Part shown: piece after piece, positions 9,554-36,407 of the stretch | How the letters are laid out: every line of letters begins with the position of its first letter | Numbering within the stretch: the stretch's first letter is position 1 | Assembly: GCA_051883395.1 (NCBI GenBank) | Contig: JBJETQ010000022.1 | Coordinates: 2,305-66,304 of the forward strand | Length of the DNA stretch: 64,000 nt | Origin: Christensenellales bacterium | Lineage (GTDB): Bacteria; Bacillota; Clostridia; Christensenellales; UBA3700 | Direction of reading: 5' to 3' | Notes under the pieces: model-generated | Seen by the model: only the letters and a program-made list of their open reading frames with translations | Told to the model about the DNA's origin: nothing | Database searches by the model: none | Position numbers and translations under genes: made by a program

Positions 9554-9896
9554 GGGGGTGTAACGGATTCGACAGGAGAAATGATGATTGTGTAAGCACG
9601 GCGAAGGCTCGGCTTCGTAAAAACGGAAATTAAATTTAAACGCTAATAATAACAAACAAATTGCCGTAGCTGCTTAATTGCTCGGCTGTCGTCCGAAGAA
9701 TCCACGACTTCGGAACGGCATCAGCTAGTGGAAAGTGCCTAAGGGAAGTGCCCGTACCCATAGGCGAGATCAGGGCTAGTTTGGCGACGATTTGGTAGCG
9801 TTGGCATCGTCAAAGACCAATCAACGCATACTAACCGTGTAGAAAGCGCAGTAGGAATTCTTTTGGACGCGGGTTCAACTCCCGCCATCTCCACCA
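9554..9896 (+). ncRNA. ssrA: tmRNA (SsrA)
   Basis: The 5' end GGGGGTGTAACGGATTCGACAGG and the 3' tRNA-like end GGACGCGGGTTCAACTCCCGCCATCTCCACCA are both present. The tag reading frame is 9642-9677: GCT AAT AAT AAC AAA CAA ATT GCC GTA GCT GCT TAA, giving ANNNKQIAVAA. Confidence 0.9.
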
Positions 9897-18287: not shown

Positions 18288-18316
18288 AAATGGAAGGGCT
18301 GATTTCCCTTCCATTT
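18288..18316 (+). terminator. hairpin terminator after the ABC operon
   Basis: AAATGGAAGGG-CTGATTT-CCCTTCCATTT is a perfect 11-bp stem with a short T-rich tail. Confidence 0.6.
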
Positions 18317-18495
18317 GTTAATTGAAATATTTCAGCAAGGGGCACGCTATACAATTTATAAGGCAAGTGCTTGAAAAATAAGAGTTTATAGCATTTATCA
18401 ATTAAATTTTGAAAATTTTTTGAAGATTTATTATTAAAAAATATTTAGTTATGTCAATTGACTATTTGAAACAGTTCTTTTTTTAAAATTAAGAC

Positions 18496-18529
18496 TTGAC
18501 AACAATGGTTGGATATATGATAATATAAT
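18496..18529 (+). promoter_or_regulatory. candidate promoter of the 15-gene operon
   Basis: TTGACA (18496-18501), a 17-nt spacer, then GATAAT (18519-18524), with an overlapping TATAAT at 18524-18529. It sits in a very A+T-rich 450-nt intergenic region. Confidence 0.4.
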
Positions 18530-18572
18530 CAACTATAATATACTAAAAGATTCACAGAAGGTATAGTGATTT

Positions 18573-21500
18573 ATGGAATTTAAGCAAATAAAAACGATGG
18601 CAGATTCTTTTAACGCAAGATTTGCTAAGGTTATTTCATTAGAAAAAGAGATAGCTGAAGCAATTGTGAGAAATCAACAGGCGTTGGAAGAAAAAAACAA
18701 AAAACTACATAGTAATATGGAAAAGTCAGTTGATGCTTATGTAAAAGCCGAGATTGAGAAAATTCGAATAGCTATAGATTCTATGTTAGATTCGTTTGGC
18801 GTGTCTGAAAAAAACGTTGTAGTAGATACGAATAATTTGATATCTGATGAATTTGAGATTAATAAAAGCACCGTACTAAGACTAATTGCGGAGATAAACG
18901 ATATTGTCAGCGAGTTAAATAAGTATGATTTTGAAAAGAACGCACCGCTTTTAAAAGTTAGTGAAGTCAAAAATGAAGATGAGACTTTTACTATTGCAAA
19001 TAATGGTAAAAGCGAAACTATTGGCGTAAATGCAAAAGAAAACGATTATTTTTCTATCCATAATCCACAAAAAGAGATATTGGAAAAACTGCCGGTTAAA
19101 GCTGTGCAGTGTAAAAAAGTGCTTGATGCGATGGAAGCGGACATAAGAAGAAGATTCACTCTGAATGAATTTGATAAGTATCTCAAAAAATGTGAGAACG
19201 AGTATATGCACGACTGCGCCAGCACGCTCAACAAAGAGATGGCTTTGACGATAAAAAGACAATTACAAATTGAAGACGACGTTCTTAGAGAAGATAGATT
19301 TAAAGAACTCTACGAATCGGGCCTTGAAGGAAAAGTCGACACTGAAAAAGGTAGCATGAACTATCCAACAAAGATTAATTTGGGCGACATAAAGTACGAT
19401 TATATCAAAAATAAAGATTATAAAAAATATCTTAATGAAAAAGATTGTCCGTTGCTTAACAAATATACTCCAGATGGAAAGATGACGGCTCCTTACGTGC
19501 TAGAATTGAGAAAAAACGGCAACATATTTATTGAAGTTGGAGAATCGAAATTGAGTACAAACACCATTAAGTTTGTACAGAAAATTATGCTTTCATTTTT
19601 GATGTCATTTCCAATAGGCAGATTGAATTATAGGCTTATCGACCTGGACGATACGGGTGAATTTGCCGATTTCAACCAGCTTAATGCCCTAAGCGCCAAT
19701 ATGTTTAAGAAGACATACAATGACGATACGAGAGTGTCTTCGGCAATGGTAGATATGGATGAAAGAATGGGCGATATCTACGACAATAAGATTACTCTCA
19801 ACGGCGTCAAAAATATATACGACTACAATGTTATATCAGAAAATGACCCACAGTCTTTTGAACTACTGACCGTGGTGGGTTTCCCTGAATGTTTTGGCAA
19901 CGAAAAGACAGTTAAGAGATTGAAAAAAATTGTAGAAAACGGTAACCGTTCCGGTATTTTTTCTTTGATTGTCTATAACAATGCCAATCCTAACAAGGCG
20001 GCTTACGTCAATGATTTTGTTATATTTGCAAAGCAAAGCATGAATTATTTTGAAGTCGTCGGTGATAAGATTTATCTCAACGGAGATAAAAAATGTGAAT
20101 TTTTGCCAAACGAAGAATTAGTATACGACGATATACCTTCTTACACACAGGTTCTCAAACAAAATGCGAAGAAAGGGGTTAATAAAGTTATTCCTTTGTC
20201 TAAGATGTTTGAAGCCACCGAAAAAGTTGAGAATACAGACGATTTCTGCGATCCTACTGAGGTCATCGACATCCCTATAGGAATGAGAGGCGGCGAGACT
20301 CAAACGTTGGCATTTTCGTCCAAAGGAGACGGTGCAGCTCATGCTTTGGCTATAGGCGGTACGGGCTCTGGTAAATCTAATTTATTACATACTATCGTTT
20401 TGTCTGCTTGCTACAAGTATAGCCCGGATGATCTCAACATCTATCTCGTTGACTTTAAGGGCGGTGTTGAGTTCAAATACTATGAAGCCAATAGAAACAT
20501 CAACAAGCAATTGCCACACATAAAACTTACAGCGCTTTCTTCCGATCCGGAGGATGGTCTTGCCGTGCTTGCAAATATCGACAAAGAATTGACTAGAAGA
20601 GAAACGTTGTTTAGAAACAAAGAGGTAGAAGATATTATGCAATATAAAAAGCGTTTTGGAGTATTGCCAAGATTGCTTGTTATCATTGATGAAGTGCAGG
20701 AGTTGTTTGAAAGAGATCAGAATATTGGTTCTTATGCAATCAATCTTATGTCAAAATTGTTCAAAAAAGGTAGAGCCTTTGGTATCAACGTACTTTGGGC
20801 TTCGCAAAACGTACCTAAGGTAGCTGGTTTGAGAGATAAAATTATTTCGCAGATAGGAAGTCGTATTTCGCTTAAACTTAACAATCCGGAAGATGCTCAG
20901 GAACTTGATATTAACGTACAGAAGATTAAAAACCTTTCTAACACGCTAGGTGTTGGCGTAATAAAAGATACTCGTACGGGACAAAATTCCGTGGAGTTCC
21001 GTGTTGCTTATGCGGAGACATCTGACAATAGAGGAATGTACTCGGAGAAAATAAATGAGAAATGGCAAAGCGTGGTTGAAAAATGGACAGATAGAGAGCC
21101 GCTCTTTGTTGTCGGTAGCAATCTGGAAGAACCAAGAGCCGACGAAGGTATTACCCCATACACAAGTCCCGTTGATAAAACCAGCCTTGTGTCCAAATCG
21201 ATGGGAGACTACAATATTGCTGTCGGCAAAGGCTATATTTCCGGAAAGCCATATTCTATACCTATCCATTTACGTGGCTCTAATTCAAACTTGTGGTTTG
21301 CAGGAGCAAATGTGGAAGAATTGCGAGACATGATGGGATTTGCAATGTTGTCTGTGCTTATGGAAAATAGGACAAACAAGGATTTTGTTGGAGACGACAG
21401 CACGCAGATTTATTACTTTAACGGAGAAGTCATCGACCAGAAAAATCCTGACGATTTGTTCTTTGTTTTGCCTAAATGTTTTTCACGATCGGTTCAAAGC

Positions 21501-27947: not shown

Positions 27948-28301
27948 ATGTGTTTTAAAAAATTTACAGAAAAGAGAAAATTGAAAAACTATAACAAGCA
28001 TGATGAAGAAATAAAAGAAAGCAATAGCGTTCTTCGTTCCAATTTTGCCAAGGTAAAAACTTTGTGCGGAATGACTCAATCAGATACAGTAAAGAGCAAA
28101 CTCAATGAAGTTGCCGATTTGTTAGAATATGCATCTCCGTCGACAAAAGGTGAGGTCGTAAAGGAAGATAACAAGATTTCTGACAGGCTTGATGACGTAA
28201 AAATTCTTATTGTTGGAGAGAAGGCAGAAGATAAAATTGTTGAAAAAATCAATGAAATCAGGATTATGGTTATTGAGAGAAATAATTTGACAGGTGTGTA
28301 A
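27948..28301 (+). CDS. operon gene 10: small charged helical protein, unknown family
   Basis: 117 aa with an AAGGAG RBS. Its stop lies 1 nt before the gene 11 start. Confidence 0.5.
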   Translation: MCFKKFTEKRKLKNYNKHDEEIKESNSVLRSNFAKVKTLCGMTQSDTVKSKLNEVADLLEYASPSTKGEVVKEDNKISDRLDDVKILIVGEKAEDKIVEKINEIRIMVIERNNLTGV

Positions 28302-28302
28302 A

Positions 28303-28908
28303 ATGTGGCCTTTTAACAAAAATAAGTTTGAAAAAATCAAGCGTAGCGACGTGGTTGACAGTATCATAAACATAGAGCGCAGGCAACAAGAAGAAATTGA
28401 TAACGTCGGGGAGCGAGAAAAAGAGATAGCGAAACTTTTGCAACAAGGAAAGGCTTGCAAAAGTCGTGATATGCAACTTGCGCTTGCCAAACGCATCAAT
28501 TTGCTTAAAAAAGAAAATAGCAACTCCGCTCAAAGAATTCAGTATCTTAACGCCAATTTGCAGGCGCTAAATCAGCTTAAAACGGCAATTGACGACAAAG
28601 ATTTTATTTCCAACAATTCGGATATACCAATCAACAAACTGTTGACCGATACGGCAGCTTTACAAAAATTTCTTGCCGGTGTAACCAACAAGAAGATGAA
28701 GGGAGAGAGCAAACTTTCTGCGGCGCTTGATACTTTTGATAATGTGGACGACGGCTATGAAGCTAACGAGCGCATTTATGGAGTAAGCGAACAGGACGAA
28801 CAACTTTTAAGTATGTTTGAAATGGAAAATTCTGAAGAAGACGCTTCGGTTTTTGGTGCGCCTGAGTACGAAAAAAATACACAAAGCATAGAAAAGGACA
28901 GCTTATAG
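28303..28908 (+). CDS. operon gene 11: ESCRT-III (Snf7 family)-like protein
   Basis: 201 aa. The N-terminus MWPFNKNKFEK resembles the yeast Snf7 N-terminal MWSSLFGW. It has a basic helical hairpin (IERRQQEEID..EKEIAKLLQQGKACKSRDMQLALAKRINLLKKE..RIQYLNANLQALNQLKTAI) and an acidic C-terminal tail. Confidence 0.7.
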   Translation: MWPFNKNKFEKIKRSDVVDSIINIERRQQEEIDNVGEREKEIAKLLQQGKACKSRDMQLALAKRINLLKKENSNSAQRIQYLNANLQALNQLKTAIDDKDFISNNSDIPINKLLTDTAALQKFLAGVTNKKMKGESKLSAALDTFDNVDDGYEANERIYGVSEQDEQLLSMFEMENSEEDASVFGAPEYEKNTQSIEKDSL

Positions 28909-28922
28909 TGAGGTAGCAAATA

Positions 28923-29516
28923 ATGGGAAGATTTTTCAAGACAAAAGAGGAAAAAGAACTCGAAAAAAGAATGCTCGTCAAAAAGACGATGCGAGATATT
29001 GAGAAACATATCGTAAAATTGCAAGCACAAAAGCAAAAAGCTGTAGAATCGGCAAAGCAAGCCAAGCTTCAAGGTTCGCCTCAACAGTATAGTCTTGCTG
29101 TCAGCTGTTTGAGAACAGCTCTTGCACAAGAAAAGAAAGCAAAAGAAATGTTGCTCAATTTCCAAAACACTTTGCAAATGCGTGATTTGAGCCAAATGAC
29201 AAGCGAGTTTTTGAAGGGAATGAGCATAGTGTCAAAAGAAATGCAAGCTATTACAAAAGATATGAATTTTGCAAAAGTTCAAAAGGAATTTGAAACGGCT
29301 ATGATGGGCATGGAGAATACCACGGATAATCTTGACGCAATGCTTGATTCTACCAACGATACTTTTTCTGCTATATCGTCTTCCAATATCAATATTGACG
29401 ACGCAGAAATCGAAGCGCTTATCGGCAATCAGGCAAGTGAATCTGAAAAGGAACTTGACAATGCCATAGACAAAAAACTCGACGAAATTTCAAAGTCGCT
29501 CAATGGAGCAAATTAA
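28923..29516 (+). CDS. operon gene 12: ESCRT-III (Snf7 family; CHMP2/CHMP3-like) protein with a C-terminal MIM1-like helix
   Basis: 197 aa. The N-terminus MGRFFKTKEEKELEKRM resembles CHMP3 MGLFGKTQEKPPKE. It is collinear with CHMP cores (MRDIEKHIVKLQAQKQKAVESAKQAKLQG ... LRTALAQEKKAKEML ... MTSEFLKGMSIVSKEM ... KVQKEFETAMMGME). The tail is ELDNAIDKKLDEISKSL. Confidence 0.8.
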   Translation: MGRFFKTKEEKELEKRMLVKKTMRDIEKHIVKLQAQKQKAVESAKQAKLQGSPQQYSLAVSCLRTALAQEKKAKEMLLNFQNTLQMRDLSQMTSEFLKGMSIVSKEMQAITKDMNFAKVQKEFETAMMGMENTTDNLDAMLDSTNDTFSAISSSNINIDDAEIEALIGNQASESEKELDNAIDKKLDEISKSLNGAN

Positions 29517-29525
29517 GGAGCAAAA

Positions 29526-31079
29526 ATGGCTGACGCTGATAAAAATGCTTTTATTTACGATACGTTTTTGATGTATTACGAGCATGCAAAAAAAGCACAA
29601 GAACGTGGCGATATTGCCGGAGCAAAAGAAAACTTGCTCCGTGCTGCGCAAGCATTGGTAAAACTTGCCAAGGAAGATAAGGGAGAACTGAAAAAAGCGA
29701 GATTTGATAGAGCAAATCGCCTTATAGAAATTGCCAACAGTCTGACTCCTAACAGCGTAGTTATCGGAGAAAATTCCAACGTTAAGCGCTCGTCAAATTC
29801 TAACAAATCTGATTCTGCCCGTTCTAACAATGCTTCAAAAAACGAAGATGAAGAAAAAATATGGCAGGCGTCTTCTATACCTGATGTCAAATTTAGCGAC
29901 GTGGCAGGTTTGGAAGACGTAAAAAACACTATAAGAATGAGAATGATAAATCCGGTCAAATATCCGGAAAAATACGCTGTTTACAATAAGAAAAGCGGCG
30001 GTGGAGTTTTGTTATACGGACCACCCGGCACTGGTAAGACAATGATTGCCAAAGCAATTGCCAATGAGGTCGGTGCAACGTTTTATGCAATCAAAGGCTC
30101 GGATATAGTAAGTAAGTGGGTAGGAGAGTCGGAAAAAAACATCAGCAGCCTATTTGAAACGGCTCGTAAGGACAAACTTGCAATAATTTTTGTCGATGAA
30201 ATGGATAGTTTGTTTGGTCAAAGGGGTGTGGACCCGCACAATGACAAACGTGTAAACGAGTTTTTGCAGCAAATTGACGGTTTTGTAGGGCGCAACCCTA
30301 ATCTTTTGTTACTGGGTGCGACAAACCGTCCGTGGGACGTCGATGGTGCGGCTGTGCGTTCCGGACGATTTAGCGAAAAAATTTATGTTCCGTTGCCTGA
30401 TGCACAAGCGAGAATGTACCTGTTGAAAAAACAACTTAAAAACATTCCTTTGGGCAGCGATGTTGATTTTGATAAAGTTGTTCAGATGACCAAAGGATAT
30501 TCGGGAGCGGATATCGATGAAGTATGTGATAGAGCCAAAGAAATACCGCTCAATAATTTTATAAAAAACAATATAGAAGAAAAAGTATGTATGAAACATA
30601 TCATAGGAGCAATAAAAAAGGTGAGACCTATGGTAAGTGCCGAGGAAATTGCTCGTTTTGAGGAATATGCGGGAGTAAGATATAAGGACTCTCCTGATGA
30701 AGAAGACGACATAGAATTCAATGACGAGACACAAAACGACGTCAATACAAATAACTCGTCGGTACAAAACGAAAGCTCGGAAGATGTAACAACTAAAAGG
30801 CAAGAAGCTCCAAAAATCATATTCGAGAAAACTCAAATAGATTTACAGCCAGGAGAAAATCCGACAATCCAATTCTATATTGACGGAGATTATGACAGAG
30901 TATATCTAGAATTGGACGGAGCCAATTACGTGTGTGAAAAATGTATACGCAACTGGAGCTGCGTTGTCAATGTACAGGAAGCAGGAGATTATGTTGCCAG
31001 GATTTTTGCTAAAGAGTTGCTGGGAGAAGAAAAATTGACGTTTTCAAAAGGTTTTGTAGAAAACGATATGGAGATTTGA
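29526..31079 (+). CDS. operon gene 13: Vps4-like AAA+ ATPase (N-terminal MIT domain, single AAA cassette, C-terminal helix, extra beta-rich C-terminal domain)
   Basis: MIT-like three-helix region at aa 1-78 (YYEHAKKAQERGDIAGAKENLLRAAQALVKLAKED ... RANRLIEIANSL). Walker A GPPGTGKT, pore loop SKWVGESEK, Walker B IIFVDEMD, sensor-1 GATNRPW. Arginine-finger region AVRSGRFSEKIYVPLPD resembles Vps4 RRFEKRIYIPLP. Followed by MVSAEEIARFEEYAG and about 125 additional aa. Confidence 0.8.
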   Translation: MADADKNAFIYDTFLMYYEHAKKAQERGDIAGAKENLLRAAQALVKLAKEDKGELKKARFDRANRLIEIANSLTPNSVVIGENSNVKRSSNSNKSDSARSNNASKNEDEEKIWQASSIPDVKFSDVAGLEDVKNTIRMRMINPVKYPEKYAVYNKKSGGGVLLYGPPGTGKTMIAKAIANEVGATFYAIKGSDIVSKWVGESEKNISSLFETARKDKLAIIFVDEMDSLFGQRGVDPHNDKRVNEFLQQIDGFVGRNPNLLLLGATNRPWDVDGAAVRSGRFSEKIYVPLPDAQARMYLLKKQLKNIPLGSDVDFDKVVQMTKGYSGADIDEVCDRAKEIPLNNFIKNNIEEKVCMKHIIGAIKKVRPMVSAEEIARFEEYAGVRYKDSPDEEDDIEFNDETQNDVNTNNSSVQNESSEDVTTKRQEAPKIIFEKTQIDLQPGENPTIQFYIDGDYDRVYLELDGANYVCEKCIRNWSCVVNVQEAGDYVARIFAKELLGEEKLTFSKGFVENDMEI

Positions 31080-31080
31080 T

Positions 31081-32583
31081 ATGGAAGAAAAGTTGAAACT
31101 ATACTTTGACGGTATGATTGTCAAAAAATCATCTATTCAGGGAGTTTTTTCTACTTTGAGCTTACCTGCGTTTATTAGAGACTGGTTTATAAAGAGATAT
31201 AGCGATAAAAACGGAGATATTAGCGTTGATTTTGTTACGGAAAAGATAAAGGATATTATTCCAAGAAAAAATGAGTGGAATGCAATTCTTGACAAAATAA
31301 TGACCGGTGAAAAGGCCAAATTTATGGCAAAAATCAACGTTTCATTTGACATAAAAACAGGGCGAGTAAATTTTGCGCTGCCAGACTTTGGTGTAACAAC
31401 CGATCAAACTTATATCAGCGCCACAGTATGGGAGACTTGCAAGAAGAGCCTGTTGCGTACTGATGGCGATATTTGGGGAATAATAGAATTGGGATATGGT
31501 ACGGTCCAAGTCAGCGCAAAAAAAGAGGAAGGAAGGATATTGCTGACTTCATTCAAAGACTTTTTGCCATATAGTATTGATATAAATTATTATAGAAACG
31601 CAAGAAAATATTTTGACTTGGATGAATGGATTGACTTGTTGCTTATGGCGATAGATTACAATCCGTCGGGCTATAACAGTCATGAAGAAAAAATTATGAT
31701 GTTGACCAGGCTTTTGCCGTTTGTAGAAAAGCGTCTTAATCTGATTGAACTTGCGCCAAAAGGTACTGGTAAGAGCTACGTCTTTTCCCAGATCAGTAAG
31801 AGAGGCTGGCTTTCCAGCGGTGGCGTAATGACGAGAGCAAAGTTACTATACGATATGAAAAGCAAACAGGAAGGTTTGGTAGCTAATTATGATTATGTTG
31901 CTCTAGATGAAGTCGGAACAATCAAATTTCCTGATGAGGCAGAAATGCAAGGGGCAATGAAAGGATACCTTGAAAGCGGCTCTTACACGGTTGGTGTAAA
32001 AGCAGGCAATGGTGACGCAGGAATTGTTCTTTTGGGCAATATTAAGTCAGAAATGATGAACGTCAACGTAAATATGTTTGAAAATTTGCCGGCAATATTT
32101 GGTGATTCTGCATTGATAGATCGCTTCCACGGTTTTATTGAAGGCTGGAAAATTCCGAGAATGAACGAGAATATGAAGGCCGACGGTTGGGCACTAAATA
32201 CGGAATATTTTGCAGAAATATTGCATGCATTCAGAGATGACGTTGTATCAAAAACATTGGTTGAAAATGTGCTAATCGTTCCAAAAGATGCAGACACCAG
32301 AGATACTACTGCCGTCAAGAAGATTATGACTGCCTTTACTAAGTTATTGTTCCCGCATTGGCAAAAGCCTCAGGACGTAGATTTTGAAAAGATGCAAAAA
32401 TATTGTCTTGACCCTGCAATGAAGATGAGAAATATTATCAAAAAGCAGTTGGCAATTATTGATGTTGAATATAGAAACAAACCAATGGCAGATTATAGAT
32501 TGATCGGGTATAATCAAACTCCGCCTGATGATCCAAGCGACAAAGATAGTTTAAGCATCGAACAAGCATGTATAAATGAGTGA
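31081..32583 (+). CDS. operon gene 14: BrxL-like AAA+ ATPase (TIGR02688 / Lon-related ATPase family) lacking the Lon protease domain
   Basis: The N-terminus YFDGMIVKK ... SLPAFIRDWFIKRY, Walker A ELAPKGTGKSY and Walker B YVALDEVG followed by MQGAMKGYLESGSYTVG match my recollection of the BrxL N-terminal and ATPase regions. At 500 aa it is too short to include the C-terminal protease domain. Confidence 0.55.
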   Translation: MEEKLKLYFDGMIVKKSSIQGVFSTLSLPAFIRDWFIKRYSDKNGDISVDFVTEKIKDIIPRKNEWNAILDKIMTGEKAKFMAKINVSFDIKTGRVNFALPDFGVTTDQTYISATVWETCKKSLLRTDGDIWGIIELGYGTVQVSAKKEEGRILLTSFKDFLPYSIDINYYRNARKYFDLDEWIDLLLMAIDYNPSGYNSHEEKIMMLTRLLPFVEKRLNLIELAPKGTGKSYVFSQISKRGWLSSGGVMTRAKLLYDMKSKQEGLVANYDYVALDEVGTIKFPDEAEMQGAMKGYLESGSYTVGVKAGNGDAGIVLLGNIKSEMMNVNVNMFENLPAIFGDSALIDRFHGFIEGWKIPRMNENMKADGWALNTEYFAEILHAFRDDVVSKTLVENVLIVPKDADTRDTTAVKKIMTAFTKLLFPHWQKPQDVDFEKMQKYCLDPAMKMRNIIKKQLAIIDVEYRNKPMADYRLIGYNQTPPDDPSDKDSLSIEQACINE

Positions 32584-32600
32584 GTAAACAGGAGCGTCAA

Positions 32601-34820
32601 ATGAGTATAAAAATAAAAAGAAGAGTGGCAATATTTGGCATAATCGCATTACTGTTGGCAGTATTATGCGTAGGCGTTGCTTGCGATTCAAACGAATTCG
32701 AAAGAGATATTTTGCCTGAAAATAATAGCACTGGTGTTGAGGAAGAAAATAAAGTGCTAGAAGATGAATTGGAAAATTTGGCAATGCATCTTGATATGTC
32801 TTTAGGACTATTCAGAGTTCTTAAAGAGAACAATAGTATCCAATATTATACAGCAGTATTTATAGACAATCAAGGCGGTTTTGTTGTGCCAAAAGAAGCA
32901 ATAGAAAATTCTATTAGCGCTGAATTAAAAACTCAAAACAGAATTTATGAAAATAATAAAATTCATGTAATCAAAAACAATGAACAAAGTAATTTTGCCG
33001 TACTCAGTGTTGACGACATTGTTACCGAGGGATTACTTACGACAAAAGAAATAAGCAATAAGGTTTATGCTGTAGGATATAACAAAACTAGCAATAACTT
33101 TGAAAAAAAGGTAATAGAAGTTTATAATTTTGACAAGGTGATAATATCGGCTGAATCAAGCGATTTTCTTTATGGATGTGCATTAATAGATTCGTCAAGT
33201 AAAAAATTATATGGCGTATATTCTCCTGTTGAAGGAGTAGCAGCAAGTGCTGAAATTTTGATGGCTGAGCCAATTGAGGATCAGTTGAGCGGGACTAACA
33301 TATATTGGAGTTTGGCAGAGTATAATCGTTCCAAATATCCATGCAATGTGTCAATATATGACGGTGAGTCGTTAGTATATTCTTTCAGTAGCGGCGTGGT
33401 TTTTGGCACGGCTGTGGGAGATATCTTGGCACAAACACGACATGTACTTAATAATCCGGGTCATGCGCTTGTAGGTTTTTATGACGACGATAACAATCAT
33501 TACACTGACGTCTCCGACGATATAAGAGACGACGTGAATTTGCATACTATGTGGGTAGAGATTGACGTGCTAGAAGAGAACGTAAGGGGAACGGTGAATT
33601 TTGACGAAAGTAAAACCCATTATTTTGATACAGGTATCAGTGTCGTTGCAACAAACGCCCCAGGTTACGTTTTTGCAGGCTGGTATAACGGAATCTACTT
33701 GCTAGATTCGGCATTGAGTGCAAAGTTACCTGTACCACAATATAACGCCACCTTTAATGCTAAATGGGTGCAATTTAGCTATGAAACCAATAATGATGCA
33801 GCAGGAAACGTTGAGGCTACAAGTTCTTATAACAGTATAGGTGATAGCGTTGTGCTGAGAGCCATAGAAACTGATGAGACATATACTTGGTTGGGCTGGT
33901 ATAAGGGCGGCGAAAAGGTTTCTGATTCGTATATATATACTATGACGATCGGAGAAGAAGATGCTCTTTACACGGCAACTTGGGAGAGCTATACGTTGAA
34001 TTTGTCGGCGGATGTGATTGGCAATAGCATTACGGTTAATTTTGACATCAACGATGAACAGGTCAGTGCAACGATGCCTTCTTCGCAGACGATATATACA
34101 GGTGAAAGTATATATTACGTCAAACCTACCGATATAGTTGGCAGATACCTGTTTGCAGGATGGTATAGTACGGCAGATTGCACAGGAGAACCGTTTGATT
34201 TTACCGCCGAGTTGAATAGCGACGTTACGCTCTATGCAAAATGGTGTGCATATAATGTCGATACTAGCAGCAATACATATTATTCAAGGCAAGTGGGCGA
34301 AACGGGAAACATATATGGTTATAGTAAAAATAGCAGTAGCGGAAACTACATAGCATTTGTTCCGTTGGTGAGTCAAAGCATAACTATTTATTCTTCGGGC
34401 AGTTGGGATACGTACGGCTATCTGTATAGCAGTAATATGAGCTTGCTCAGTTATAACGATGACGGTGGCATAAATAATAATTTTAGTATTACATATAGCG
34501 TGAAAGCAGGACAATTATATTATATCAAAGCGTGCGGGTATTCGTCATCAGGTACTATGGGCTTAACGATAACGGGTACTGCAACTCCTGCTGACGGAGG
34601 TAATGTAGTCGGTTTCAGCGGACCTTATTCCGGAAGAATTAAGGCAGGAACTGTATTCAATTTTAGAACCCATGCAACTAGCGGCGCCGGCGCTTATGTT
34701 TTCAATGGCTGGTATGTCAACGGAATCTTGCAAGATGCAGACTACGATGAATTTGAATTTGTAATGCCTTATCAAGATGCAAATATAGAAGTAAAATATA
34801 GAACCATGTCGATTTACTGA
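32601..34820 (+). CDS. operon gene 15: anchored surface protein with a degenerate trypsin-like domain, Listeria-Bacteroides (InlB B-type) repeats and a PPC-like domain
   Basis: N-terminal anchor or possible lipobox IFGIIALLLAVLCVGVAC. Repeats GYVFAGWY, YTWLGWY, GRYLFAGWY..DVTLYAKW and AYVFNGWY. SWDTYGYLYSSNMSLLSYNDDGG ... GQLYYIKACGYSSSGTMGLTITG is typical of pre-peptidase C-terminal domains. AGGAG RBS precedes ATG 32601. Confidence 0.65.
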   Translation: MSIKIKRRVAIFGIIALLLAVLCVGVACDSNEFERDILPENNSTGVEEENKVLEDELENLAMHLDMSLGLFRVLKENNSIQYYTAVFIDNQGGFVVPKEAIENSISAELKTQNRIYENNKIHVIKNNEQSNFAVLSVDDIVTEGLLTTKEISNKVYAVGYNKTSNNFEKKVIEVYNFDKVIISAESSDFLYGCALIDSSSKKLYGVYSPVEGVAASAEILMAEPIEDQLSGTNIYWSLAEYNRSKYPCNVSIYDGESLVYSFSSGVVFGTAVGDILAQTRHVLNNPGHALVGFYDDDNNHYTDVSDDIRDDVNLHTMWVEIDVLEENVRGTVNFDESKTHYFDTGISVVATNAPGYVFAGWYNGIYLLDSALSAKLPVPQYNATFNAKWVQFSYETNNDAAGNVEATSSYNSIGDSVVLRAIETDETYTWLGWYKGGEKVSDSYIYTMTIGEEDALYTATWESYTLNLSADVIGNSITVNFDINDEQVSATMPSSQTIYTGESIYYVKPTDIVGRYLFAGWYSTADCTGEPFDFTAELNSDVTLYAKWCAYNVDTSSNTYYSRQVGETGNIYGYSKNSSSGNYIAFVPLVSQSITIYSSGSWDTYGYLYSSNMSLLSYNDDGGINNNFSITYSVKAGQLYYIKACGYSSSGTMGLTITGTATPADGGNVVGFSGPYSGRIKAGTVFNFRTHATSGAGAYVFNGWYVNGILQDADYDEFEFVMPYQDANIEVKYRTMSIY

Positions 34821-34933: not shown

Positions 34934-35203
34934 TTATAGTATAAAAACAGCGTTCCATTTAGCTGTAAGGACGGCGTTGTCGTTGGTTATTGACCAACCT
35001 TTTAACATTTTGCCATTGCTATTGGTAATTTGCGTATTGCCTATATACCAACCGTCAAAAGTATAGTGAGACCTTGTAGGTACTACCAACGTCTTGGTCA
35101 AATTATATTGTATAGTCCCCAAAGCGTCTCCGCCGTTGACGGCATAACTTATATTATAAGAATTAAGTTGGTGTTGAAAATGCGTATAAGATATGATATA
35201 ATA
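34934..35203 (-). pseudogene. orphan fragment encoding a single Listeria-Bacteroides repeat (gene remnant)
   Basis: The minus-strand frame is open from 35203 and reads YNISYAVNGGDALGTIQYNLTKTLVVPTRSHYTFDGWYIGN ... AVLTAKW. There is no ATG, RBS or signal peptide, and it overlaps the promoter of the downstream plus-strand gene. Confidence 0.55.
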
Positions 35204-35231: not shown

Positions 35232-36407
35232 ATGAATAACAAGGCAATGTATAAATTGAGTTACGGACTGTTTGTCCTTACGGCAAAAGAAGGAGATAAG
35301 GACAACGGTTGTATCATCAACACGGCTATGCAGGCGGCGTCCGTACCCAATCAGGTAAGTATTTGCGTCAACAAAGCCAACTATACTCACGATATGATTG
35401 TCAATACGGGAGTGTTTACTGTGTCCGTCATCAGTCAAAAGGCTAAATTCGAATTATTCAAGCGTTTCGGCTTCCAATCGGGCAGGACAGTTGACAAATT
35501 CGACGGCTTTGACAAGTGCGTCAGGGGTAGCAACGGCTTGTTGTATATCAACGAAGGAACCAATGCTTACATATCGGTCAAGGTTGACAAAACCGTAGAT
35601 TTGGGTTCTCACACTATGTTTATCGGTGAAATTACCGATATGGAAGTGCTTGACGACAGTTCGTCTGCAACTTACGAGTATTATCTCAACAATATCAAGC
35701 CAAAGCCACAACCTGTCGGCGTAGCAGAGAACGGACAAACGGTATGGCGTTGTTCGATATGCGGATATGAATACGTAGGAGAAGAATTGCCTGCGGACTT
35801 TGTCTGCCCTATATGCAAACACCCTGCGTCTGACTTTGAAAAGATTGTAAAAGCCAAAGAAACCGCTTCTACCAACAAATATGCAGGCACTAAGACGGAG
35901 AAAAATCTGCACGAAGCCTTTTCGGGAGAGTCGCAGGCGAGAAACAAATACACGTTTTTTGCTTCGGTTGCTCAAAGAAACGGTTATGAACAGATTGCCG
36001 CTCTGTTCCTGAAAACAGCGGAAAACGAAAGAGAACACGCAAAACTGTGGTTCAACGAACTTGGCGGAATAGGCGATACCGCACAAAATCTCGAAAGTGC
36101 GGCTGACGGTGAAAACTACGAATGGACGGATATGTACGACGGCTTTGCAAAAACGGCAGATGAAGAAGGATTTACAGAACTTGCCGAAAAGTTCCGTAAA
36201 GTGGGAGCAATAGAGAAACGCCACGAGGAGCGCTATCGTGCGTTGCTCAAAAACGTGGAAACACGTGAAGTTTTTGCCAAGAGCGACGTCAAGGTATGGG
36301 AATGTCGTAACTGCGGACACGTTGTCGTAGGCACAAAAGCACCTGACGTTTGTGAAGTATGTTTCTATCCGCAAGCATATTTTGAAGTGAGTGAAGAAAA
36401 TTATTAA
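35232..36407 (+). CDS. flavin reductase-rubredoxin-rubrerythrin fusion protein
   Basis: aa 1-150 are flavin-reductase-like ([21 protein letters not shown]). Rubredoxin segment: [20 protein letters not shown]. Rubrerythrin di-iron helices: [18 protein letters not shown] and [11 protein letters not shown]-terminal rubredoxin-like centre: [15 protein letters not shown]. Confidence 0.85.

Follow-up and report, generated by a model that had tools for sequence, protein, structure and literature searches.

A block of fifteen genes, located at 18573-34820 on the + strand of a 64,000-nucleotide (nt) stretch of contig JBJETQ010000022.1 from a Christensenellales bacterium (the window), appears from its sequence to encode a bacterial ESCRT-III/MIT-AAA machinery with unprecedented partners. 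The products are numbered P1 to P15 in gene order. The operon is well supported as a composite, made of a conserved core, P8 to P14, and an add-on confined to a Christensenellaceae subclade, P1 to P7 and P15. Its most likely role, to which we give a probability of about 0.45, is that of a membrane-anchored conflict or defence system built on an ESCRT-III/AAA chassis and acting against phage or other invading DNA. An earlier note on the window, made from its letters, had proposed nearly every domain assignment retained here, namely an EssC/EccC-like ATPase, WXG-like proteins, an SPFH-zinc ribbon protein, Snf7-like proteins, a MIT-AAA ATPase, a short BrxL, a leucine-rich repeat (LRR) membrane protein and a repeat surface protein, and these were borne out. 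The core genes are as follows.

25616-26962, + strand: P8, 448 amino acids (aa), with a zinc ribbon, a TPR region, a TIR-like region (residues ~155-275) and a C-terminal WXG-like domain with a W-D-D motif (~340-448).
26985-27917, + strand: P9, 310 aa, an SPFH (Band_7_1) domain followed by a C-terminal zinc ribbon, an architecture of the YdjI type.
27948-28301, + strand: P10, 117 aa, helical, with N-terminal M-C-F-K-K and two motifs resembling MIT-interacting motif 1 (MIM1), DNKISDRLDDVK at residues 74-85 and EDKIVEKINEIR at 94-105.
28303-28908, + strand: P11, ~201 aa, with a conserved N-terminal MWPFNK and C-terminal IYGV..DDQLLSMFE; the open reading frame (ORF) opens with GTG at 28294.
28923-29516, + strand: P12, 197 aa, a Snf7-type ESCRT-III protein with N-terminal MGRFFK and a C-terminal MIM1-like DNAIDKKLDEISK.
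29526-31079, + strand: P13, 517 aa, with a MIT domain (~10-75), a low-complexity linker, one classical AAA cassette, a C-terminal helix and an extra C-terminal domain (~430-517).
31081-32583, + strand: P14, 500 aa, a short BrxL with BrxL_N and BrxL_ATPase domains and intact Walker A and B motifs, lacking a Lon-protease domain.

P12 is firmly assigned, from family profile and predicted structure, as a Snf7-type ESCRT-III protein. The profile, built from 71 members, places CHMP2A (E = 9.7e-6), CHMP3 (9e-5) and CHMP1B (0.012) on top when searched against the sequences of the Protein Data Bank (PDB). Pfam Snf7 is matched by 12 of the 71 members, with a best E of 9.6e-7, and the P12 of the window by itself yields E = 2.2e-4, which is below the cutoff. 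The same holds for several assignments in this work: Snf7, WXG100, MIT and TIR are sub-threshold with single window sequences, and were recovered by family profiles or transitive homology. The AlphaFold2 model of P12, which presents a pLDDT of 86, has helices at residues 8-50, 53-110, 115-151 and 160-195, and its topology is the hairpin plus two helices of the ESCRT-III fold. All seven of its best PDB matches in Foldseek are ESCRT-III proteins, with E values of only 0.06-0.2. The family comprises 342 representative clusters.

The earlier note had counted two Snf7-like proteins; this is firm for P12, but only probable for P11, which is probably a divergent ESCRT-III-like paralog of its neighbour. 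Comparing the P11 family with the P12 family in hhalign yielded E values of 4.7e-4 and 6.5e-4 over 164-165 collinear columns, at a probability of ~30%. No match was found for the window P11 in Pfam or for its family profile among PDB sequences, and the 190 clusters of the family are all annotated as hypothetical.

The third small protein, P10, has no global similarity to ESCRT-III profiles, with which it has in common only a MIM-like motif and its N-terminus. Hydrophobic-then-lysine-rich N-termini are found in P10 (MCFKKF), P11 (MWPFNK) and P12 (MGRFFK). The motif (D/E)xxIxx[KR]Lxx[LIV]K is strongly conserved in the P10 family, and is the MIM1 consensus of the Vps4 literature. The strict pattern scored was (D/E)xxLxx[KR]Lxx[LIV][KR], which occurs at one position in 9 of the 16 members of the P10 alignment (A6), against a shuffle mean of 0.3. 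Among the C-termini of the P12 family, MIM1-like motifs are present in 5 of 71 members under the strict pattern and in 32 of 71 under a relaxed one, against a shuffle mean of 14.

The ATPase that would act on these proteins is P13. Its Walker A and B motifs are intact, the pore loop reads SKWVGESEK and the arginine fingers are visible; in Pfam it matches AAA (138 bits), AAA_lid_3 (38 bits) and, borderline, Vps4_C (21.7 bits, cutoff 21.3). When searched against PDB sequences, a profile of its N-terminal region retrieves the MIT domains of chitin synthase (E = 1.7e-3), Sulfolobus Vps4 (2w2u, 2.3e-3) and VPS4B (0.02), and also matches those of VPS4A and calpain-7. Pfam MIT is matched by 5 of 21 P13 family members (best E 2.6e-7), precomputed MIT matches exist for many homologs, and the window sequence alone has no Pfam MIT match. 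These values indicate that the N-terminus of P13 is a MIT domain.

The earlier description of P13 as Vps4-like stands as far as the MIT domain, the single AAA cassette and the Vps4_C match are concerned, but the cassette itself is nearest to Cdc48/VCP D2. The NCBIfam model for CdvC yields 214 bits against 233 bits for CDC48, the nearest solved relatives are p97/VCP D2 and archaeal VAT, and for residues 296-395 p97 yields 76 bits and katanin 35 bits, with Vps4 outside the top 60. Given this proximity to Cdc48 D2, P13 was rejected as a Vps4 ortholog; it appears Vps4-like by architecture and context, with no demonstrable orthology. The extra C-terminal domain (30800-31079) is probably beta-rich, has a weak Ig-like match, and is without counterpart in the MIT-AAA homologs of 370-390 aa.

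In comparison with archaeal Cdv and eukaryotic ESCRT-III plus Vps4, the operon presents the same MIM1-like motifs in the partners of the ATPase and the same hydrophobic-basic subunit N-termini. It differs in being bacterial (Clostridia), in the Cdc48-like character of its AAA domain, in the absence of CdvA or ESCRT-I/II, and in that some of its relatives have tandem AAA cassettes.

P9 matches Band_7_1 with 90 bits and Zn_Ribbon_1 with 34 bits, and is the first core gene in most loci. The combination of an SPFH domain and a zinc ribbon has been described for the ydjF operon, as a partner of PspA in Firmicutes (PMC11237479). The likeness to this PspA-YdjGHI system lies in a Band_7_1 SPFH domain with C-terminal zinc ribbon adjoining a gene of the ESCRT-III superfamily; in contrast with it, the ESCRT-III member here is of the Snf7 type rather than PspA_IM30, YdjG and YdjH are missing, and a dedicated MIT-AAA ATPase is present.

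These components stand out against the published record. According to a 2025 review, a Vps4-like ATPase "appears absent in bacteria", and bacterial ESCRT-III is only of the PspA/Vipp1 type (PMC7619361). The only finds reported in a 2024 survey were VPS4-like transfers with a TPR-6TM gene in the place of snf7, and some PspA/Snf7-AAA+ operons that include transporters (PMC11237479). Our full-text literature search found no description of this module or of this combination of parts, in agreement with the earlier statement that no described system unites them. To our knowledge, SPFH-zinc ribbon proteins, short BrxL, TIR proteins, trypsin-like proteases and EssC-like ATPases have never been seen as partners of ESCRT.

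The distribution of the genes was obtained from a survey with BrxL as anchor and one genome per species, which yielded 36 loci, mapped with phmmer. In 24 of these the BrxL is 49-81% identical to P14 (33% in the partial contig L042) and the hosts are Christensenella, Christensenellaceae or Clostridia metagenome-assembled genomes (MAGs). There, BrxL comes after SPFH, P10, P11, P12 and MIT-AAA genes, often with an inserted trypsin-like protease (found in at least 13 sister loci), and a zinc ribbon-TPR-TIR_2 protein of 680-1450 aa is encoded upstream or downstream. In another 11 loci, from Selenomonadales, Eremiobacterota, Anaerolineae, Cloacimonadales and Thermincola, a BrxL of 43-53% identity forms the end of a BrxP-BrxC-PglZ-BrxL system, that is, type-4 BREX. 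The remaining locus, on a short contig (L025), was not assignable.

The full block is syntenic, at ~66-70% protein identity, in two other Christensenellaceae MAGs with different flanks. P1-P7 were found in three places only: the window, CAZTFQ010000002.1 (L001 and L008, one and the same contig) and, to the extent of its fetched flank, Christensenella sp. UBA7588 (L007); P15 was found only in the window and in L008. The L001 cassette is flanked by genes for CTP synthase and CysRS. Because the core is present in ~24 genomes, and P1-P7 in three loci only, the fifteen genes are best described as a core with a lineage-specific add-on. The idea of all fifteen as one unit is accordingly not sustained, given that P8-P14 recur without P1-P6 outside those three loci and that a separate P7-like gene is usually absent. 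Likewise, the co-occurrence raised in the earlier note holds for the Snf7-like and MIT-AAA genes, which are found together in ~24 Clostridia/Christensenellales genomes, but the FtsK-like gene without transmembrane (TM) segments is restricted to the same three loci. The MIT-AAA, P11 and P12 families are also much larger than the P1 family.

P14 exceeds the cutoff of the short-BrxL model TIGR02688 (424 bits, cutoff 329) and matches the PADLOC BrxL model PDLC02505 with 643 bits. It thus resembles the BrxL of BREX type 4; however, BrxC/PglY, PglZ, PglX and BrxP are absent from the window operon according to Pfam and PADLOC, and the orthologs of P14 at 54-81% identity make up a group associated with the ESCRT-III/AAA module. 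According to a 2025 paper (PMC12065111), the C-terminal end of many long BrxL proteins is a PLD-like domain with a relationship to MIT_C of MITD1, which binds ESCRT-III in humans; this MIT_C-like domain is a second, independent connection between BrxL and ESCRT. The short P14 is without it. As a separate observation, in several of the type-4 BREX loci (L027-L032), the BrxP-BrxC-PglZ-short BrxL genes are followed by a gene for a DndA/SspA-like cysteine desulfurase.

Contexts anchored on P11 vary in content, and the core itself is for this reason considered modular. One version (L048), seen in 723 blocks of the assembly collection, has only P10, P11, P12 and a tandem AAA ATPase, while L049 has SPFH, P10-P12, tandem AAA, trypsin and TIR genes without BrxL. 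In two MAGs (L006:5782-13198 and L050:8872-16407), a module with SPFH, ESCRT-III, MIT-AAA, BrxL and TIR genes lies directly between ftsA-ftsZ and nrdR, a placement that suggests stable vertical inheritance, or a link with division, in that lineage.

The minimal version bears on a first alternative to a defence role, in which the operon would be the Snf7-type counterpart of PspA-YdjI and respond to envelope stress: polymers organised by SPFH and recycled by MIT-AAA would seal or shed damaged membrane, and LRR-TM-TIR proteins would sense the damage. The P9 architecture, being the one that partners PspA in Firmicutes (PMC11237479), agrees with such a role, as do the lack of immune-type genes in the P10-P11-P12-AAA version, which is very common in gut samples, and the housekeeping genes that flank the loci. 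It leaves unexplained, however, the recurrent BrxL, the TIR proteins, the trypsin-like proteases and the RuvB-NERD, TnsA-like and FtsK fusions described below, as well as the low, island-like GC content and the patchy distribution. We consider membrane repair a doubtful explanation.

Among members of the P12 family, some are fused C-terminally to FtsK_alpha and an FtsK motor, and others to RuvB_N, RuvB_C and a NERD or TnsA-like endonuclease. These fusions are found at L045:245-2089 and L046:8001-10403, and in proteins P0180, P0182, P0195, P0199, P0204, P0222, P0259, P0264 and P0289; no description of Snf7::FtsK or Snf7::RuvB-nuclease architectures was found. The operon of the RuvB-NERD fusion also encodes trypsin, SPFH, another P12-like protein, MIT-AAA and a P8-like protein, and the FtsK fusion adjoins a Sel1-trypsin gene. 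It is known that HerA/FtsK domains have been captured into anti-invader systems (PMC10853773). The present family is similar to those systems in having FtsK-family motors in accessory, patchy operons with nucleases, but here the motor is joined to an ESCRT-III-like membrane-binding domain or encoded together with one, and the window P1 is of the protein-translocase (EccC) type and not of the DNA-pump type.

FtsK and SpoIIIE clear DNA from a closing membrane, and a scission of the ESCRT-III type coupled to such DNA pumps might accordingly serve cell division, sporulation or DNA clearance. The existence of Snf7::FtsK fusions with both alpha and motor domains, the position of the module directly after ftsA-ftsZ in two MAGs, and the fact that archaeal ESCRT-III/Vps4 divides cells (PMC7619361) speak for it. 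Yet only a very small share of species has the module, its flanks differ elsewhere, its GC content is below that of the host genome, FtsZ is present, and TIR, NERD, trypsin and LRR ectodomains would be unexpected in such a role, which we regard as very unlikely.

The genes of the add-on are as follows.

18573-22100, + strand: P1, 1175 aa, an N-terminal coiled coil (~1-250) followed by three tandem FtsK-type alpha/beta domains.
22091-22363, + strand: P2, 90 aa, helical, with a W-D-D hairpin motif (W-x-D at residue 41).
22372-22638, + strand: P3, 88 aa, WXG100-like, with W-N-D replacing W-x-G.
22635-22895, + strand: P4, 86 aa, helical, with a W-Q-D motif, a putative WXG-like partner without significant family match.
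22897-23409, + strand: P5, 170 aa, a coiled-coil protein without family assignment; the ORF opens at 22867 and the start was taken from the ortholog.
23406-23684, + strand: P6, 92 aa, a helical protein without family assignment; the ORF opens at 23367.
23720-25564, + strand: P7, 614 aa, a cytoplasmic N-terminal region, three TM segments (181-304) and a predicted extracellular BspA-type LRR domain.
32580-34820, + strand: P15, 746 aa (739 aa from the ATG at 32601), an N-terminal membrane anchor, an unassigned ectodomain and Flg_new/InlB-B repeats.

The TIR-like protein P8 connects the core with the add-on gene P7. Residues 4-300 of P8 share homology (E 1e-12 to 1e-29) with the N-terminal part of proteins of 680-1350 aa, in which residues ~160-290 match Pfam TIR_2 with 35-42 bits (cutoff 28). 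P8 itself has no TIR match in Pfam, and transitive homology indicates that it carries a TIR domain. The earlier TIR-like assignment is thus upheld through the homologs, but the window copy has lost a conserved glutamate: in the family alignment (A8) most homologs read W[VM]KNEW, and the window, L001 and L007 read LESIW, AEDVW and SERIW. The WxKNEW glutamate is presumably the catalytic residue, by analogy with SARM1 E642. Because this column is I or V in the P1-bearing loci, the P8 of the window may be catalytically inactive. In the same three loci, the TIR protein has lost its membrane/extracellular tail and gained a WXG-like domain; many other P8 homologs have 1-13 C-terminal TM helices. The C-terminus of P8 matches ESAT6_2 with E = 6.5e-5 (23 bits, cutoff 100).

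P7 matches LRR_5 (86 bits) and LRR_8 (36 bits) in Pfam, and is the predicted sensor partner of P8. A 1515-aa protein of a sister locus (L049:14235-18782) comprises, in order, a P8-like zinc ribbon-TPR-TIR part, a second TIR-like domain, three TM segments and a P7-like BspA LRR domain, and its gene is followed by one for an ADP-ribosylglycohydrolase. Because both are fused in this protein, P7 and P8 look like a split receptor, with the LRR outside and the TIR inside. In comparison with TIR immunity (Thoeris ThsB, Toll-like receptors), the P8 homologs have TIR_2 and the TIR-TM-LRR fusion follows the logic of a Toll-like receptor, whereas the window has no ThsA-type effector, divides the receptor between P7 and P8, and has a P8 without the glutamate and with a WXG-like tail.

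The remainder of the add-on consists of P1, the small helical proteins and P15. The three FtsK-type domains of P1 span residues ~265-530, 560-815 and 900-1150, and only the middle one has an intact Walker A (GGTGSGKS) and Walker B (IIDEVQE). P1 matches Pfam FtsK_SpoIIIE with 99 bits, its best NCBIfam matches are EssC and EccC, far under their cutoffs, and its matches among PDB sequences are EccC, EccC5 and YukB, not FtsK itself; parts 1-540 and 800-1175 have no match to PDB sequences. The AlphaFold2 model, with a low overall pLDDT of 61 and good values for residues 265-530, comprises the coiled coil and three alpha/beta domains. In Foldseek its top match is EccC (4nh0, E = 1e-22, 977 columns), then EccC/EssC D2-D3 (~600 columns), and single-domain FtsK motors come after. 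The internal repeat is weak by hhalign (D0 against D1, E = 0.008). The model points to an EccC/EssC-like triple ATPase for P1. No hydrophobic or TM segment was found in the TM scan and no FHA match in Pfam, and a search of 5.8 billion proteins yielded no more than 8 clusters of the P1 family.

P2, P3, P4 and the C-terminal ~110 residues of P8 are all helical and hairpin-sized, with W-x-D in place of W-x-G. P2 and the C-terminal domain of P8 are paralogs (phmmer E 2e-5 to 6e-5). P3 matches Pfam WXG100 with E = 2.9e-4 (21.5 bits, cutoff 27.3) and TIGR03930 with E = 4e-4, both below the cutoff. In P15, the ectodomain (~60-330; 32700-33600) resembles the trypsin-like proteases encoded between the AAA and BrxL genes of sister loci with an hhalign E of 0.003, which is too weak to claim a relationship, and the catalytic serine motif is not conserved.

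Like EssC/YukB of the type VII secretion system (T7SS) of the T7SSb kind and EccC of ESX, P1 has three tandem FtsK-type domains with a single active one, next to WXG100-like genes. Unlike them, it has no FHA domain or TM segment and its active domain is the middle one; the operon has W-x-D for W-x-G, and no Pfam or NCBIfam match to EssA, EssB/YukC, EsaA or YukD was detected in any of the fifteen products, as the earlier note had also read it. Given that the defining partners are absent, a canonical T7SSb, BREX or Thoeris system was rejected. Distant relatives of P1 (30% identity) are present at L003:9040-13849 and in L004, in a diderm bacterium with Lpt genes nearby. Their neighbours are a genuine WXG100 gene and genes for small unknown proteins, possibly a minimal cluster of the T7SS kind in a Gram-negative.

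A second alternative, a non-canonical export route, takes its support from these genes. Soluble P1 would recognise P2-P4 and the WXG-tagged P8, which would leave the cell by ESCRT-III/AAA budding rather than through an EssB/EsaA channel, with P7 and P15 at the surface. The resemblance of P1 to the EccC/EssC triple ATPase, the WXG100 gene adjoining its distant relative, the gain of a P2-like WXG domain by P8 only in P1-bearing loci, and the lack of a membrane channel component in the operon fit this reading. Against this, the add-on occurs in three loci only, whereas more than 20 genomes have the ESCRT core and no add-on; none of the WXG assignments reaches its cutoff, BrxL is left unexplained, and no signal of vesicle formation is readable from the sequence. 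Export is thus distinctly unlikely as the role of the operon.

Within the window, the fifteen co-directional ORFs were all confirmed at their coordinates. Four starts were set from the lengths of the orthologs in a related contig (P5 at 22897, P6 at 23406, P11 at 28303 and P15 at 32601). P1/P2 overlap by 10 nt and P3/P4 and P5/P6 by 4 nt each, and the gaps between the remaining neighbours are, in gene order, 8, 1, 35, 51, 22, 30, 1, 14, 9, 1 and 17 nt, an exact match to the earlier list of junctions once the starts are fixed by ortholog length. Terminator-like matches on the + strand within the block are weak and no commoner than in shuffled sequence (16 found against 12.9 +/- 3.9), which agrees with the earlier description of a single tightly packed operon. 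A terminator-like hairpin lies at 18291-18318, upstream of the following site.

18496-18524, + strand: promoter-like site TTGACA-17-GATAAT, within an AT-rich leader and at the start coordinate of the earlier note; a consensus match only.

The leader has no Rfam match, the only one in the window being a tmRNA elsewhere. The GC content of the block is 0.33-0.39 and that of the flanks 0.42-0.49, and the block is thus a compositional island.

A role against phage or other mobile genetic elements is favoured because TIR, BrxL, NERD/TnsA, captured FtsK and trypsin-like parts are typical of conflict systems, and because the module is patchy and island-like. The ESCRT-III protein, the probable second one, the MIT-AAA ATPase, the MIM-like motifs and the SPFH-zinc ribbon protein are inherited together, and the BrxL, TIR, protease, nuclease and translocase modules attached to this chassis are exchanged between loci. 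Of the three working hypotheses in the earlier note, envelope-level defence is ranked above a secretion apparatus with its own membrane-repair module and above a scission- or vesicle-based export route for the WXG-like proteins.

In the mechanism that we propose for defence, the N-terminal motifs of P11 and P12 would let these two proteins form polymers at the cytoplasmic side of the membrane, either inside an SPFH assembly or next to it. The MIT domain of P13 would dock on the MIM1-like motifs of P10 and P12, and ATP hydrolysis would drive remodelling or recycling of the polymer, as Vps4 does. The polymer would then be a membrane platform that positions nucleic-acid or translocase motors, which in the window would be the BrxL-like P14 and the EssC-like P1, and in sister systems the FtsK or RuvB-NERD parts fused directly to the ESCRT-III domain. 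This platform would be coupled to the receptor-like pair formed by P7 and P8, LRR-TM-TIR receptors giving the input or an effector activity, with the TIR, BrxL and nuclease modules as exchangeable sensors or effectors. In the variant of the window, the WXG-like domain of P8 may link the TIR-like protein to the EssC-like ATPase.

Several observations weigh against the defence reading. No catalogued system was found with PADLOC-DB v2, where BrxL is the sole specific match among the operon products; P13 has generic ATPase matches to IetA/TRIP13 and P1 to mad8/SspH, and for P8-P12 there is no meaningful match, those of P9 to Cas12f (E = 7e-4) and P12 to PtuB (6e-3) being at chance level. No defence-like gene is present in the very common minimal version (L048), the module has a stable position between ftsZ and nrdR in one lineage, and the dozen loci inspected are bordered by housekeeping genes instead of defence islands. 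As for the parts, the TIR region of the window P8 is without the conserved WxKNEW glutamate, the AAA cassette of P13 is nearer to Cdc48 D2 than to Vps4, the model of P1 has low overall confidence, and the interaction between MIM and MIT is deduced from motifs only.

A bolder possibility, which we think unlikely, is that the operon encodes a clostridial scission machine of the ESCRT-III/Vps4 type, triggered by LRR-TM-TIR sensors and working with DNA or protein translocases (BrxL, FtsK, RuvB-NERD, EssC-like), that would seal or pinch off the patch of membrane where foreign DNA enters, or bud vesicles with WXG-tagged cargo without a channel. If true, either action would represent a novel type of immunity or secretion in bacteria, and would be evidence that the pairing of ESCRT-III with MIT-AAA exists, or has arisen independently, in bacteria.

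The genomic surroundings of the block consist of housekeeping genes. Upstream lie metA, the tmRNA gene, an SDR gene and two ABC exporters; downstream lie rubrerythrin and TfoX genes, and then an operon for the F-type ATP synthase. At the level of Pfam annotation of the window, the flanks contain no integrase and no genes of phages or conjugation. An origin of the block as prophage, integrative conjugative element or plasmid was rejected, given the absence of mobile-element genes from the flanks. P12 homologs are absent from 50,697 phage and 72,556 plasmid records. Viral contigs yielded only two BrxL-like matches: one (L043) has flanks without the ESCRT module, and the other (L044) is a 1.9-kb fragment.

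The tmRNA gene (9554-9896, + strand, tag peptide ANNNKQIAVAA) precedes the operon by ~8.6 kb. Integration often takes place at tmRNA genes, but the interval from this one to the island showed no integrase or repeat. Just downstream of P15, on the opposite strand (34934-35140, - strand), an orphan ORF of 62-69 aa contains a single Flg_new (Listeria-Bacteroides) repeat (…HYTFDGWYIGNTQI…LTAKW). It looks like what is left of a further surface-protein gene, and recombination at the border of the island may have left it there as a scar. It is followed by a gene (35232-36407, + strand) for an unusual fusion of flavin reductase, a rubredoxin-like domain and rubrerythrin, which has its own strong promoter-like site at 35174-35202.

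The pairing of Snf7-type subunits bearing MIM-like motifs with a MIT-AAA ATPase in this family bears on the origin of the ESCRT-III/Vps4 partnership, with two routes at stake for a pairing of this type: transfer from archaea, or convergent assembly from a Cdc48-like ATPase. In the operon family, TIR, BrxL, nuclease, FtsK and EssC-like modules are linked to the remodelling of membranes, and its sister loci include bacterial LRR-TM-TIR proteins with the topology of Toll-like receptors. It may represent a new mechanism of defence or export in abundant, uncultured gut Clostridia.

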